The notes below the pieces were generated by a model. That model saw nothing but the letters and a program-made list of their open reading frames with translations, was not told the origin of the DNA and searched no databases. A DNA stretch of 31,698 nt, from positions 1 to 31,698 of IMG/VR virus record IMGVR_UViG_2565956729_000013, one strand, 5' to 3'. Shown here in pieces: positions 22,680 to 31,698 of this stretch. Both the position numbers and the translations under genes were made by a program. How positions within the stretch are numbered: position 1 is the first letter of the stretch; the number at the start of each line of letters is the position of its first letter. The stretch comes from a virus. Lineage: Duplodnaviria; Heunggongvirae; Uroviricota; Caudoviricetes.

Positions 22680-25435
22680 TTTCCACTGGTTAGTCCACCC
22701 CGCAGCAGCTCTGCTTTGCGGCGGACGCGTTCAGTGGTTTCACTGATTCTCTGTGCGTGCTCTGCGTCACGGATGGCACGCAGCATGTCAGAAAGCACGG
22801 TAACGGGTGTTTTCATGGTGTTCTGGTCCTGCTGAAGTGTGGATGCCAGGCGTGCGGCGGCTTCGGGGTCTGATGCCCTCAGCTGTGCCAGATAGCTGGC
22901 GACCGGGTTATGACGGATCTCCGTGCTGCTTACGCCGTGATTACGGCTCAGGCGCTGCCAGAGCTGCGTGATTCGGCTGTCCGGGCGGGTATCCGGTTTG
23001 CGTACAATTTCAAATCCCTGCGGTGCAATGATGCTGCCGTCAACGTACAGACTGCCGCCCCGTAACAGGTGCTGCATCTGCTGTTCACCGATATGCAGGC
23101 CAAGGGATTCAGCAGACTCCCGCCATTCTTTAGCGAGTAATTCGTGGTTATCAGGCAAAGGCCGCTGCTGTTTGCGGCTCTGTGTCCAGCTCTGCATTTC
23201 ATCACTGCTGTTTTTTGCCTGTTTGTCACGCAGCGAACGCATCAGCGCCCGGCGTTCGTGCCGTTTCAGTGAGCGCATCCATTCATTCACGTCAACGCTG
23301 TCAGGAAGCTGCGGCCACGGTGCTGGCCGTTCTTCCGGCTGTTCTGTCCCGTTGTTGTCCGTTTCCTGTACACGGGGACAGTTATTGCCACGAGTCCAAG
23401 GGGCGGCAGGGCCGCCCTGAAGGTCAAAACCATTTTCGTGGGCGTTGTCTTCCGGTTCTGGTTTACGTCTTACCAGCTTCCAGTTATCCGGATGCGTGCA
23501 CACACGGGAGGATTCCCCGATGAGTGGTGACCAGATCCCGTAAATCTGTACGCTCTGTTCGCCGTAATCATTCAGCTCATCTGCGAGGTCGTAGGCGGTG
23601 CGAATCAGGTAGTCTTTGCGTGGAACAAGTACGCCGCCCTGTTTCTCAATGTAGGTGGCAAAACACCCGGCATCAGCGGCAGCGAGTACCGCATCCATTG
23701 CATCATCCTTCAGCCGTTGTGGGCCTTCCGGGTTGCGTGCCATCTGGCTGGCAAGGCGGCGCAGTTCACGCCACACCTGACGGGAGGGGATGCCAAAGAA
23801 CTGGAACTGGCGGACCCGGTGAAGGCGCGCCCAGCCGATGGCGCGTTCCACACTCTCGGCCATTGATTTTCCGGTTTCGTGGTCAACGCGTGGCTTGCCC
23901 GTTTTCGGGTCGATGCCATCCACGGCGCGGCTGTCCAGGTTCTTTCCGATGTAGGTGGCGATGTAGCTGGTTGGCGTGCCTTTTGAGCCGTCGACGTACT
24001 CCGCCTTAAAACGCGGAGTTATGTCATCGCCCAGCTCGTGGCGGTCTTCCTGAATGGCAATATCGCAGACGTGGGACACGATGGTTTCAATCTCGTCAGG
24101 ATGAGCAAAAACCATCATGTGCCAGTGCACCGTGCCGTCATGATGAGGCTCCACCGTGCGGATGCCATACCAGCGCAGGCCGTCGCGGTTCAGTTTTTTG
24201 CGGACCGCCGCAAAAAACGTGTTAACCAGGTAATCGCTGGAGTCGCGCATAGTGGCCCCGTTCCATTTGGGATTCGGATGACCGTTCTCCGTTGTTGCGT
24301 GGTATTTTGACGGGCAGGTGACAGTCAGAAACACCGCTCTGTCGCCACGGGCTTCGGCCAGAAGTTCCAGCCCCTTCATGGTGGCCATCATTTCTGCCTT
24401 ACGGTGAACCGGGTTACTTACTCCCGCGTAATACACTGTATCGAGATCAATCGTGAACCCGTCTTCGTTTTCCAGCATGAAACTTTTCAGGAAATCGCGT
24501 GTTTTCTCGCGCTGTGCGCGAAACTCGCTTAACGCGTTCTGGCTCAGATAGGGTGATGTTTTTCTGGAAACCAGACAGGCGGCGCGGAGTTGTTCTTCTC
24601 TCCACTCGCAACGTAACAGCCACAGTTTGCGTTTCCACCAGTCCGCACAGGTCAGGCGAAGGATTGCGCCCGGCAGCAGCTCCGTGTCTGGTTCGTTCTT
24701 CCGGTCTTTGTCTGTTGTCAGTGCGTCATAATACGGCGGCACGGTGTGCAGATGTAACGCCATGCGGGCCAGCATCTGATACACCTTCAGCGTTATATCC
24801 ATAGTCAGCTCGCCATCGGTCGCGCCAAAGCCATCGCAGAGCTTTTCGAAGGTGCTGCTGAACATCGCCGCCGTCATGGTGGCCAGCGTCTGTATCTGGT
24901 GCTTGTTGAGCTGTGGCAGGTACAGCAAATCGTCCAGGCGTTCACGTCCGGCAAGGGAGCGATAACCCGGAGTCAGCCAGTGACGGTCGGTGCAGTCCAG
25001 ACGTTCGAATATTTTGCGCAGGGTTCCGTGCGCGTAACGTTCAGCCTGCCAGTTCTTTTTTCCTTTCCGGCGATCGGCTTCCTGTTTTTTGCGCAGGAAG
25101 GAGAGGTGGCGAATAAGCGGATCGCGCAGATAGGACGGCAGCAGGCGCAGCGAGGCCATGGCTTCATCCACCGCGCCGCGTGCCTGTCTTCTGGCGTCTC
25201 CTGCCAGCGTGATGGTTTTGTCCTGTTTTTCCTGTGCGTCCAGGCTTTTATTAATCAGGTTGCCCAGCGGCGTGGCGGAGAACGCCGCATCAGCCATTTC
25301 CTGGCGGCGCTCGTTCTCTGCCCGGTAGGCATCCAGCCAGGAGGAAAGCGCGGATTCAGGAGCGGGGATCCCCGTTCCTTCACGCCCCACTGCGTGGCGC
25401 GGTTGTTGCCAGTCCCTGATGTACTCTGCCGTCAT
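22613..25435 (-). CDS. replication initiation endonuclease (P2 A-like rolling-circle initiator)
   Basis: 940 aa; metal-binding motif HWHMMVF typical of the family; 3' end overlaps the second parC-like repeat. Confidence 0.8.
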   Translation of the reverse strand: MTAEYIRDWQQPRHAVGREGTGIPAPESALSSWLDAYRAENERRQEMADAAFSATPLGNLINKSLDAQEKQDKTITLAGDARRQARGAVDEAMASLRLLPSYLRDPLIRHLSFLRKKQEADRRKGKKNWQAERYAHGTLRKIFERLDCTDRHWLTPGYRSLAGRERLDDLLYLPQLNKHQIQTLATMTAAMFSSTFEKLCDGFGATDGELTMDITLKVYQMLARMALHLHTVPPYYDALTTDKDRKNEPDTELLPGAILRLTCADWWKRKLWLLRCEWREEQLRAACLVSRKTSPYLSQNALSEFRAQREKTRDFLKSFMLENEDGFTIDLDTVYYAGVSNPVHRKAEMMATMKGLELLAEARGDRAVFLTVTCPSKYHATTENGHPNPKWNGATMRDSSDYLVNTFFAAVRKKLNRDGLRWYGIRTVEPHHDGTVHWHMMVFAHPDEIETIVSHVCDIAIQEDRHELGDDITPRFKAEYVDGSKGTPTSYIATYIGKNLDSRAVDGIDPKTGKPRVDHETGKSMAESVERAIGWARLHRVRQFQFFGIPSRQVWRELRRLASQMARNPEGPQRLKDDAMDAVLAAADAGCFATYIEKQGGVLVPRKDYLIRTAYDLADELNDYGEQSVQIYGIWSPLIGESSRVCTHPDNWKLVRRKPEPEDNAHENGFDLQGGPAAPWTRGNNCPRVQETDNNGTEQPEERPAPWPQLPDSVDVNEWMRSLKRHERRALMRSLRDKQAKNSSDEMQSWTQSRKQQRPLPDNHELLAKEWRESAESLGLHIGEQQMQHLLRGGSLYVDGSIIAPQGFEIVRKPDTRPDSRITQLWQRLSRNHGVSSTEIRHNPVASYLAQLRASDPEAAARLASTLQQDQNTMKTPVTVLSDMLRAIRDAEHAQRISETTERVRRKAELLRGGLTSGNKKQTKTGFTNPVNEQKTRGEI

Positions 25436-29414: not shown

Positions 29415-29765
29415 TTAATTCCCCCGTGGATGCTGAAAACTACGTCCTGCAATTAAGCGGTCAACCGTGCGTAGCGCTTCGTACAATGTAAAATCCTGTC
29501 CGAACTGATTGTCGCCGTTGCTCAGTGCAAAAATGCGGTTTCCGGTAAACGGATTGCGTGGGCATTTGTGGACCGCGATTCCAGCTTTCTCAATCAGCCA
29601 GGTGTGCTCGCCGATTTGTTTTACGGGGTAGCCATCCGGCGTTGCGTGTGTTTCGCTCAGGCTGTAGCGAGAGTTGCTGCGTGATGCACTGGTAGCGAAA
29701 CGGTTAGCATGGCGTTCTGCACCGTTGCGGAAGCGCTGCTGTGGAGAATTACGCCGCTCCTTCAT
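29415..29765 (-). CDS. hypothetical protein (116 aa)
   Basis: First ORF downstream of cox in the early operon. Confidence 0.5.
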   Translation of the reverse strand: MKERRNSPQQRFRNGAERHANRFATSASRSNSRYSLSETHATPDGYPVKQIGEHTWLIEKAGIAVHKCPRNPFTGNRIFALSNGDNQFGQDFTLYEALRTVDRLIAGRSFQHPRGN

Positions 29766-29802
29766 ATCAAAATACTCCGTCTAAAATGAATTATGGTTTG
29801 GG

Positions 29803-30228
29803 TTATGCTGCTTTACCGCTGATGTTTCTGTTTCGTCTGCCACTTGTTGGCTTAAACAAAAACAGACGGTTTTCCCAGTCGTGCCATTCCTGAGGTGCGT
29901 TTTCGATGAGGCGATCGCATGCTTCATCCCACGCTTTTCTGTTGATGTAGAGTTCAGCGTTTCCGCCTGGCTTGAGAGGGTCCGCCATATACACCGCAGG
30001 TAGCTTTCCTGCTTTTGCCATGCTTACGATGGCATCAACGGTCTTTCCGATATACATCGCAAATCCTTCTTTTGACAGGAGATGCGAGGGATTTTCTGAA
30101 AGTCGAATTTCTTCACGTTCACGTGCTTTGCGTCCTGTTTTTTGATGCTCACCTTCTGGCATTTCTGACAGGTGATCGCATCGTGTTCCGCAAAGTGACT
30201 CAGGCGCGTTTTGAGTGCTTTCTTGCAT
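29803..30228 (-). CDS. cox: Cox-like excisionase / early-promoter repressor
   Basis: GFAMYIGKTVDAIVSMAKAGKLPAVYMADP resembles recalled P2 Cox EFAKLIGKSTGAVRRMIDKGKLPVIDMTDP; ATG at 30228 has GGAGG RBS (alternative ATG at 30162); divergent from C. Confidence 0.7.
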   Translation of the reverse strand: MQESTQNAPESLCGTRCDHLSEMPEGEHQKTGRKAREREEIRLSENPSHLLSKEGFAMYIGKTVDAIVSMAKAGKLPAVYMADPLKPGGNAELYINRKAWDEACDRLIENAPQEWHDWENRLFLFKPTSGRRNRNISGKAA

Positions 30229-30342
30229 CTGATATCCTCCGCTATTGGTGCTTTTTCTAATTGGCACTAGTTGGAACCACTTAGAACATTTGTTTGCTGT
30301 TCATATGTGGTGTTAATCTACACATATGTAGGAGTTTGTCAA
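30229..30342. promoter_or_regulatory. immunity switch region (divergent early and repressor promoters, operator repeats)
   Basis: Three direct repeats at 10-bp phasing (TTGGCAC 30261, TTGGAAC 30271, TTAGAAC 30281) and inverted repeat CATATGTG-N11-CACATATG at 30302..30328; promoter hexamers not assigned. Confidence 0.55.
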
Positions 30343-30636
30343 ATGGACATTCCTCAAAAAATTCGCGTCATGCGTAAATCTGAAGATCTCACTCAGCGGG
30401 AATTCGCTGATATGATTGGGATTTCTTATTCTGCTCTGACCAGTTATGAGTATGGTCGTAACCTTCCTGGCCTTGAGATCACTATCAAGCTTTTCAAGCA
30501 CCCAAGATTTTCTAAATATCGCGACTGGTTTTTGTTTGATGAAGTTGAACCTAAGGCCGGGCAGGTTGTACCGGCTCTCGCACACATTGGGCAAAACGAA
30601 GCGGAATTATCCCGCTCCGGCAAGAAAACTGGTTAA
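30343..30636 (+). CDS. immunity repressor (P2 C-like)
   Basis: 97 aa; RVMRKSEDLTQREFADMIGISYSALTSYEYGR and C-terminal PALAHIGQNEAELSRSGKKTG resemble recalled P2 C; GGAG RBS. Confidence 0.8.
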   Translation: MDIPQKIRVMRKSEDLTQREFADMIGISYSALTSYEYGRNLPGLEITIKLFKHPRFSKYRDWFLFDEVEPKAGQVVPALAHIGQNEAELSRSGKKTG

Positions 30637-30702
30637 CGGTTCACCAGGCATTTATTTCCCAGAGCTGTGATCAAGATGATGTTTTCATTGGAGGGCTTCC
30701 TT

Positions 30703-31698
30703 ATGTCGATTAAGAAGCTCGCTAATGGCAAATTTTGTGTGGACGTGCGGCCAGCTGGATCAGAAGGAAAGAGATTCAGGCGGCGATTTGATACTCGTGG
30801 TGAGGCTGTTTTGTATGAGCGTCATGTATTGCAGCATTACCACGACAAAGGCTGGGTTGATAAGCCAACAGAACGGCGCTCGCTGAGGGAGTTGCTGGAT
30901 TGTTGGTGGTTGTATCACGGTAAAAATCATCCTTACGGTGCGATGGAGCGAGTGCGTATTGCTGCGGTCATTAGTGATCTTGAAAGTATTAATGTTACAC
31001 GCAGTGATCAACTTACTCGTAAAAACATAATTAATTATCGGTTATTGTTGCTTAACCGCGGAATAAAACAATCCACGGTTAATCGTTATTGCGCAATGAT
31101 GAGTGGTTTTTTCACAAAACTAATTGACGCAGAGGAATATTCTGGGGCTAATCCGTTTCATGATGTGAAAAAACTTAATATCAAACAGCCTGAAATGGCT
31201 TATTTGTATCATGAAGATATTCCACGATTACTGGAGTTGTTATTTGGTGATGAATTAAAAGCCGTCTTGTTGTGTCTGGCAACAGGTGGAAGATGGAGTG
31301 AAGTTGCAAATATCAAGGGGGAGCATGTTATTAGCGGCAAAGTCATTTTTATGGAAACCAAAAATGGGAAGCGTCGCGTTATACCTATATCGTCAGAACT
31401 GGAGTGTATGATTAAAACAAAGGCCACTGGTCGTTTAATTTATCCAAGTTATTCTGCTGTCAGAACGGCTATCAGAAAGGTGAGGCCCGATCTTCCTGAA
31501 GGGCAGTCGATACATGTTTTACGGCATACCTTTGCCACTCACTTCATGATTAATGGTGGGAATATCATCACTTTGCAGAGAATACTTGGACATAGCACTA
31601 TTCAGCAGACGATGACCTATGCCCATTTTGCACCGGATTATCTGCAGGATGCTGTGCGTTTTAATCCTGTGGCTGAGTTGTCCAGATATTGCCCATAA
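30703..31698 (+). CDS. int: tyrosine integrase (P2 Int-like)
   Basis: ATG at 30703 (MSIKKLANGKF...) with GGAGGG RBS; C-terminal HVLRHTFATHFMINGGNIITLQRILGHSTIQQTMTYAHFAPDYLQDA nearly matches recalled P2 Int; stop is the last 3 nt of the window. Confidence 0.9.
   Translation: MSIKKLANGKFCVDVRPAGSEGKRFRRRFDTRGEAVLYERHVLQHYHDKGWVDKPTERRSLRELLDCWWLYHGKNHPYGAMERVRIAAVISDLESINVTRSDQLTRKNIINYRLLLLNRGIKQSTVNRYCAMMSGFFTKLIDAEEYSGANPFHDVKKLNIKQPEMAYLYHEDIPRLLELLFGDELKAVLLCLATGGRWSEVANIKGEHVISGKVIFMETKNGKRRVIPISSELECMIKTKATGRLIYPSYSAVRTAIRKVRPDLPEGQSIHVLRHTFATHFMINGGNIITLQRILGHSTIQQTMTYAHFAPDYLQDAVRFNPVAELSRYCP

Follow-up and report, generated by a model that had tools for sequence, protein, structure and literature searches.

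The gap between the divergently transcribed cox and C genes of a P2-like phage raises the question of which of its repeated sequences is read by which of the two proteins. We address this question for the gap at positions 30229-30342 of a 31,698-nucleotide stretch of DNA from a Caudoviricetes virus (IMG/VR record IMGVR_UViG_2565956729_000013), the whole of which is referred to below as the window. An initial annotation, made from the sequence, described an immunity switch with three phased 7-bp direct repeats, which it gave to the repressor C, and a separate 8-bp inverted repeat, which it considered to be either a Cox site or an RNA hairpin in the C leader. The analysis presented here suggests that the assignment of these two repeat sets to C and Cox was probably swapped.

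Results

The gap belongs to a P2-type switch

Positions 30229-30342 comprise the entire 114-bp gap between the ATG of cox (30228, minus strand) and that of C (30343, plus strand). The flanking genes, and their ribosome-binding sites as read from the sequence, are the following.

29803..30228, minus strand: cox, encoding a Cox-family winged-helix protein of 141 aa (long form), which leads the early operon
30236..30240, minus strand: GGAGG, ribosome-binding site of cox, with the ATG 7 nt on
30330..30334, plus strand: AGGAG, ribosome-binding site of C
30343..30636, plus strand: C, encoding a P2-type immunity repressor of 97 aa, recognised by structures 2XCJ/2L49 and Pfam HTH_3
30703..31698, plus strand: int, encoding a tyrosine integrase, 3' of C, recognised by Pfam Int_N and Phage_integrase

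The first early gene is, as in P2-type switches, a divergent gene for a Cox-family winged-helix protein: its product matches the Pfam family Phage_Cox (PF10743) over aa 40-120 (E 5.4e-28; 97 bits, with a cutoff of 27.5) and the structure of P2 Cox (4LHF) over aa 53-118 (E 3.6e-6). The repressor has the size (about 100 aa) and the N-terminal helix-turn-helix expected for such a switch, aligns with the P2 C structures 2XCJ/2L49 over its full length (residues 3-97, E 2.6e-25), and is 44% identical to P2 C and 70.5% identical to P88 C. The nearest sequenced phage is Escherichia phage P88 (Peduoviridae, Xuanwuvirus, NC_026014), which has the same gene order and is 93% identical to the window at the DNA level over 29700-31698; its Cox is 100% identical to that of the window and its int is nearly identical, the int counterpart being annotated as integrase in both P88 and UPEC132. 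The homologies of C and Cox, the presence of int and the relationship with P88 identify the locus as a P2-like lysis-lysogeny switch, and by these relationships 30229-30342 is an ordinary lysis-lysogeny control region of a P2-like (P88-like, Xuanwuvirus) prophage. The immunity switch proposed initially is therefore retained, in the sense of a P2-type phage whose gap between C and cox carries sites of the C and Cox kind. As the last base of the window is that of the int stop codon, the attachment site should lie just beyond the window.

The Cox protein is longer than that of P2 (141 versus 91 aa). Its Pfam domain (aa 40-120) is preceded by about 39 aa of acidic or polar character, an N-terminal extension also present in 47-51% identical homologues (vB_YpM_117, pro147), and is followed by about 20 aa that make up a basic tail. 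Used as a query against the genome-contig collection, Cox returned no relatives. Cox proteins of this long type ('group 2') have been described previously, as have additional tentative immunity classes among P2-like prophages (PMC3448106).

Two sets of repeats in the gap

The first set lies in the cox-proximal half of the gap and consists of three phased boxes and an inverted fourth copy.

30254..30260, minus strand: TTAGAAA, inverted box, a fourth copy that adjoins box 1 and is the left arm of inverted repeat I2
30261..30267, plus strand: TTGGCAC, phased box 1, proposed Cox box, with an equivalent retained in classes B and C (defined below)
30271..30277, plus strand: TTGGAAC, phased box 2, proposed Cox box, from the repeat and the class comparison
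30281..30287, plus strand: TTAGAAC, phased box 3, proposed Cox box, from the repeat and the class comparison

The starts of boxes 1-3 are exactly 10 bp apart, and the boxes are imperfect copies of each other (pairwise matches 6/7, 6/7 and 5/7). When the 114 bp were dinucleotide-shuffled 5000 times, an equally good period-10 triple was obtained in 0.18% of the shuffles; the count was 0/5000 for random 114-bp segments taken from the window, and triples were found in 0.4-0.6% of the controls when periods of 9-12 were permitted. The three direct repeats at 10-bp spacing were thus correctly noticed at 30261, 30271 and 30281, albeit as imperfect copies, and the probability that they arose by chance is about 0.002-0.006.

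The second set lies near C. The sequences CATATGTG (30302-09) and CACATATG (30321-28) form an inverted repeat of 8 bp that is 100% complementary, with 11 nt between the arms, and the right arm ends two bases 5' of the AGGAG at 30330-34. The inverted repeat reported just upstream of the C ribosome-binding site is therefore perfect; repeats of at least 8 bp with a loop of 3-20 nt occur in 2-4.5% of controls (chance about 0.02-0.045). The same DNA contains CATATGT at 30302-08 and at 30323-29, which is a perfect 7-bp direct repeat with the copies 21 bp apart. Because the CATATG core is palindromic, the same two words constitute an inverted and a direct repeat at once. No further copy of CATATGT is present on the plus strand across the 31.7-kb window.

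The CATATG pair flanks the -10 of the predicted early promoter

The position of the CATATG pair with respect to the early promoter Pe, which is directed toward cox, is given by the following features.

30302..30308, minus strand: ACATATG on the Pe strand, proposed C half-site O2, 3' of the Pe -10 and at the position of P2 O2
30315..30320, minus strand: TAGATT, predicted Pe -10 (promoter scan, 10/12 matching)
30323..30329, minus strand: ACATATG on the Pe strand, proposed C half-site O1, between the Pe -35 and -10 and at the position of O1 in P2 and WPhi
30337..30342, minus strand: TTGACA, predicted Pe -35, adjoining the C start codon (promoter scan; the P2 -35 is in the same place)

TTGACA-16-TAGATT is the sole sigma-70-like site predicted in 30100-30450, and, as a control, the same scan returned only the mapped Pe in P2 and in WPhi. 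Sequence prediction hence provides what is expected of a P2-type switch, namely a strong Pe toward cox with its -35 at the C start. The GenBank entry of P2 places O1 and O2 (GTTTAGAT, 22 bp apart) on either side of the Pe -10 (TAGTAT), and has the start codon of C overlapped by the -35 (TTGACA). In the window, O2 is the left arm of the 8-bp inverted repeat and O1 overlaps its right arm (30321-28). A routine that searches for the longest direct repeat found the mapped operators of P2 (ATCTAAAC, 22 bp) and WPhi (GTCACCAATA, 34 bp), and returned CATATGT (21 bp) for the window. It should be noted that a 7-bp direct repeat anywhere is commonplace (about 15% of controls); a direct repeat of at least 7 bp that straddles the Pe -10 hexamer is found in about 1.8% of controls.

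C repressors of the P2 family bind two direct half-sites at Pe that are 22-34 bp apart (PMC1904268): 8-bp sites 22 bp apart flanking the -10 in P2, 10-bp sites 34 bp apart flanking the -10 in WPhi, and 8-bp sites 26 bp apart flanking the -35 in P2 Hy dis (PMC1904268; PMC2995052). We scored the two predicted CATATGT half-sites, at 21 bp, as an arrangement of this kind. Based on the geometry of the mapped O1 and O2 of P2 around the Pe -10, C most likely has its operator in the CATATG pair at Pe. The comparison with the operators of P2 and related phages, which had been suggested as a check, is in keeping with a C operator of the direct-repeat type, but it is the CATATG pair and not the phased triple that fits. 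Likewise, the inverted repeat that was offered as a Cox site is better explained as a C operator, being a 21-bp direct repeat that flanks the Pe -10 like O1 and O2 of P2.

Natural exchanges separate the two sets of repeats

Relatives were taken from E. coli genomes, IMG/VR contigs and metagenomes; they are few and phylogenetically related, and fall into three classes that have the Cox DNA-binding domain in common (Cox 84-100% identical).

Class A (window, UPEC132): Pe-flanking repeat CATATGT, 21 bp apart; boxes 1/2/3 TTGGCAC / TTGGAAC / TTAGAAC
Class B (P88): Pe-flanking repeat GTTAAyT, 25 bp apart; boxes 1/2/3 CTAGCAC / TTAGAAC / TTAGCGC
Class C (L023, L037): Pe-flanking repeat AAAAATTAT, 19 bp apart; boxes 1/2/3 TAGGGAC / GTAGAAC / TTGCGAC

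The Pe-flanking repeats of the three classes are unrelated in sequence, and the C proteins differ in the region of helix 3 (ISYSALTSYEYG, LTLAALRQYEQG and INYYTYHGYESG) and are identical in their C-terminal half. The three boxes are kept at exact 10-bp phase in 3/3 classes, with nTTrGmACyA as the consensus of conserved positions, and the inverted box has an unvarying TTCTAA throughout classes A and B, with TTCGAA in its place in class C. The GGAGG ribosome-binding site of cox is without variation in all relatives compared, and the Pe -35 (TGTCAA) is constant in all classes although its flanks are just 40% identical. Between these classes with the same Cox, the cox-proximal part of the gap is 66-77% identical and the Pe part 48-57%. 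The reciprocal situation is provided by L037 (class C) and phage pro483. Between the two, C is 78% identical over the N-terminal 50 aa, with an identical helix 3, and the DNA next to Pe is 72% identical; identity is only 53% for Cox and 47% for the cox-proximal box DNA, and the boxes of pro483 (CTGGAGC, CTAGAGC, TTTGAGC) differ from those of L037. Together, the swaps in the same-Cox classes and the pair L037/pro483 indicate that the Pe-flanking pair tracks C and that the phased boxes track Cox.

The alignment with P88 delimits the exchanged segment. Window and P88 are 100% identical through cox up to 30252, 40-63% identical across 30269-30358 and 57-77% identical up to about 30510, beyond which the C-terminal part of C and int are again 97-100% identical. 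The resulting island of divergence, of about 270 bp (30253-30520) and with sharp edges, contains the operators and the N-terminal two-thirds of C. Judged by this profile, it looks like an immunity-cassette exchange with the right crossover in the conserved C-terminal coding part of C, and the window phage and P88 are probably heteroimmune. The phased boxes fall within this island, where they are about 67% identical between the window and P88, and their retention could in part reflect linkage to cox. Among 5426 complete E. coli genomes, 7 contain the class-A cassette and about 23 that of the P88 type. The second half-site is degenerate in L035, a class-B variant, which makes the two-half-site operator less uniformly clear in this lineage.

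Two further observations concern the architecture of these regions. The inverted box and boxes 1-3 together (30255-30286) form a 32-bp imperfect dyad (TTCTAATTGG / CCACTTAGAA) that is 90% complementary; its class B counterpart (TTCTAACTAG / CTAGTTAGCG) has one change, which is made on both sides. This dyad may simply reflect boxes in opposite orientation. In addition, two IMG/VR relatives (L023:700-1500 and L022:700-1520; Cox 84% identical) contain two switch-plus-C cassettes in tandem, in the order cox, switch (class C or A'), a C gene truncated at ...GQSEAE, and TTCATCTGATACCCTCC, a remnant of the cox start and its ribosome-binding site, followed by a complete second switch (TTGACA-17-TAGTTT, with phased boxes), a full-length C (MSTNVGEK...) and int. 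As predicted from this arrangement, a prophage of this type would have two repressors and two early promoters in series.

Other readings of the inverted repeat

At Pe, C might read a dyad and not a direct repeat, binding as a symmetric dimer or tetramer to the inverted repeat 30302-09 / 30321-28, or to the near-palindrome CTACACATATGTAG (30318-31). The P2 C dimer is symmetric and resembles palindrome-binding proteins (PMC2995052), the inverted repeat is perfect across 8 bp, and between the -35 and -10 lies a near-palindrome, of 14 bp in class A (6/7 pairs) and of 16 bp in P88 (7/8 pairs; AGTGAGTTAACTTACT). Against this, the direct repeat of class C (two 9-bp copies of AAAAATTAT) is unambiguous and has no matching dyad, 3/3 mapped members of the family use direct repeats, and the alternating pyrimidine-purine run CACATATGT yields palindromes cheaply. 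Moreover, a 1-nt deletion in the class-A variant L036 breaks the 14-bp palindrome, whereas both copies of CATATGT remain; the idea of the extended O1 palindrome as a real operator is weakened accordingly. Since the CATATG words are equally direct and inverted, their sequence has no power to tell which symmetry C reads. Taking these points together, we regard the dyad as an unlikely target, and the chance that the class-A C is a P2-family repressor that uses inverted repeats with true dyad symmetry as somewhat slimmer still. If true, the dyad reading would offer a natural handle on how the symmetric dimer of P2 C reads direct repeats.

The inverted repeat might also act at the RNA level, as a hairpin beside the ribosome-binding site in the leader of the C mRNA that modulates translation or transcript stability. 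The leader would include it if Pc is near cox, as in P2, and a fold of -12 kcal/mol that reaches the AGGAG region is predicted, with 8/200 shuffles folding as well. Yet this corresponds to a z of only -1.87, the z of the equivalent P88 leader is 0.05, class C has no comparable stem, and an Rfam search of 29700-30800 gave no match. A stable, conserved fold with covariation, as would be expected of a structured RNA leader, is thus not what we found, and the hairpin that had been suggested as an option is highly improbable. On the opposite strand, a search for a conserved fold of the cox leader (30229-30310, minus strand) in six switch variants yielded just a small hairpin, in which GGUGC pairs with GCACC and UUCY pairs with the GGAG of the cox ribosome-binding site. 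With a consensus energy of -7.2 kcal/mol and one covarying pair, this hairpin is too weak to compete with the reading of the region as DNA boxes.

The phased boxes and a second cluster at the attachment site

The cox-boxes of P2 have the consensus TTAAA(G/C)NC(A/C), are present in at least 6 copies that are 10-11 bp apart from start to start (PMC3936717), occur in either orientation, cover the -35 and -10 of Pc, and recur in attP (PMC3936717). In the window, the phased boxes sit 28-59 bp downstream of the Pe -10. To look for further boxes, a weight matrix was built on the switch boxes of the three classes. None of the other 63,038 positions of the window gave a phased triple scoring above 7.7. 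For the DNA directly 3' of the int stop, which lies outside the window, the score was 15.4 with P88 and 18.4 with the UPEC132 prophage (class A). This cluster has the units AATAGGACTA-AATAAGCCCA-yTTAAGACTA, of which the middle box is weak (0.9 bits), and a further AATGTAACTA follows 18 bp on. According to the GenBank entry of P2, its Cox footprint (24399-24472) has the attP core on one side and the int stop on the other, and the P' arm for Int lies inside the 3' end of int; the layout of the cluster in P88 and UPEC132 matches the position of this footprint. Binding both at the switch and at an arm of the attachment site is what defines Cox and Apl, and the second cluster therefore counts in favour of the boxes being Cox sites.

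The phased triple tracks Cox and not C, and a similar cluster follows the int stop at the position of Cox in P2. On the basis of these sequence comparisons, the 10-bp-phased boxes are most likely Cox boxes. Multiple boxes phased at 10-11 bp are found in the expected Pc region and at the attachment site, as for P2, although the switch of the window has only three strong ones compared with the at least 6 reported for P2. We propose from the match with the P2 layout that Cox would also bind the attachment-site cluster and direct excision. Arm sites for Int were considered for the attachment-site boxes and set aside as the main reading, given that another 16-bp repeat, TTGTCCA(G/C)ATATTGCC, sits in both arms; its complement contains TGGACA and matches the P2-type arm consensus tgTGGaCa (PMC3448106). 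In the deduced attP of P88 (L001:3470-3606 and L025; the attL of UPEC132 is L024), one copy of the arm-type repeat lies within the 3' end of int, and a GC-rich hairpin (GGGAGGCC...GGCCTCC) is situated between the boxes and the phage-host junction. The UPEC132 prophage adjoins licT.

The original scheme, with C on the three phased repeats and Cox on the inverted repeat, can be weighed on this basis. Direct repeats are indeed what C-family repressors bind, and of the two repeats in the gap the phased triple has the stronger statistics. It is also part of the cox leader, which is transcribed, so that a protein bound there could form a roadblock. Nevertheless, a C operator of the P2 family is expected to be specific to the class of C and to have a pair of half-sites that overlap core elements of Pe (-10 or -35) and are separated by two to three helical turns (22-34 bp in those mapped), whereas the boxes are 10 bp apart, begin at least 28 bp downstream of the Pe -10, survive in three classes with different C recognition helices, and alter when Cox alters. 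Their 10-11-bp phasing is itself a published property of cox-boxes (PMC3936717), and a like cluster is present in the attachment site. As to the inverted repeat, the sites of the Cox family are phased multi-copy repeats and not a single dyad. We therefore judge the original scheme to be very unlikely.

The repressor promoter

In P2-type switches, Pe and Pc converge (PMC1904263). The scan of 30100-30450 gave no consensus match for Pc; as it also missed the mapped Pc of P2 and of WPhi, this absence is uninformative. One element can be named by its position relative to P2.

30245..30250, plus strand: TTGGTG, weak candidate for the Pc -35

This sequence is 20-25 nt from the cox start, within one base of the annotated Pc -35 of P2, and does not vary between classes A and B; it lacks an acceptable -10 downstream. 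The candidates found by eye, TTGGTG-17-TAGTTG (the best, with a poor -10), TTAGAA-17-TATGTG and TGtTAATCT, were rejected as poor and not conserved between classes.

Discussion

What this analysis chiefly adds is a correction of which repeat set goes with which protein, and the region is otherwise an ordinary P2-type switch. We consider it likely that it functions as a P2-type bistable switch in which C acts on the CATATG pair at Pe and Cox on the phased boxes and the attachment site. In the lysogenic state, C dimers would occupy the ACATATG half-sites at 30323-29 and 30302-08, on either side of the Pe -10, and bound C would block the transcription of cox and the early operon from Pe. In the lytic state, a drop in C would allow Pe to fire and Cox to be made. 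Cox would then oligomerise on the boxes at 30261, 30271 and 30281 and on the inverted box at 30254-60 and, with a weak Pc placed in the cox-proximal half by analogy with P2, shut off C and int; at the phased cluster beside the int stop, it would direct excision. These binding events, the position of Pc and the role of Cox in excision are what we infer from the genes, the repeats, the predicted Pe and the co-variation described above.

The resemblance with P2 extends to the order of cox, gap, C and int, the length of the gap (114 bp in both), the Pe -35 TTGACA at the C start codon, the short direct-repeat pair about two helical turns apart around the Pe -10 (21 bp in the window, 22 bp in P2), the boxes with about 10-bp phasing in the cox-proximal half, and the second cluster between the int stop and the att core. 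The proteins and the sites themselves are different: C is 44% identical, Cox is about 30% identical over the winged-helix part and has 141 instead of 91 aa, the half-site is ACATATG with a palindromic core instead of GTTTAGAT, and the box consensus is TTrGmAC(y)A instead of TTAAA(G/C)NC(A/C). In addition, P2 has a Pc -10 (TATAAT) whereas the window has no recognisable one. With P88, the window shares an identical Cox, the box phasing and the Pe -35. It differs from P88 by the replaced immunity cassette of about 270 bp, by a C protein whose identity is 70% along its whole length but 51% in the first 50 aa, and by the Pe-flanking repeat, which is GTTAAyT with the copies 25 bp apart in P88. The publication on P88 deals with its tail fibres.

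WPhi and P2 Hy dis likewise have paired direct half-sites at Pe, and WPhi resembles the window in having one of the two between the -35 and -10. The half-sites of these phages are unrelated in sequence to those of the window and differ in dimensions, being 10 bp long and 34 bp apart in WPhi, and 8 bp long, 26 bp apart and around the -35 in P2 Hy dis. For the phased boxes, a parallel is provided by Apl of phage 186, an excision directionality factor that doubles as a switch repressor. Its targets, at the attachment site as well as between the promoters of the switch, are direct repeats spaced by one helical turn (PMC7498355). The other components of the 186 switch are different, because this phage uses the CI repressor and the CII protein, neither of which is related to C.

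The practical value of these results is a corrected annotation for P88-like prophages, in which C probably has the CATATG pair at Pe as its operator and the phased boxes are probably Cox sites that are also present at the attachment site. The natural cassette swaps, which combine one Cox with three sets of C and operator and include one reciprocal case, could be used for direct tests of the specificity of C and Cox.
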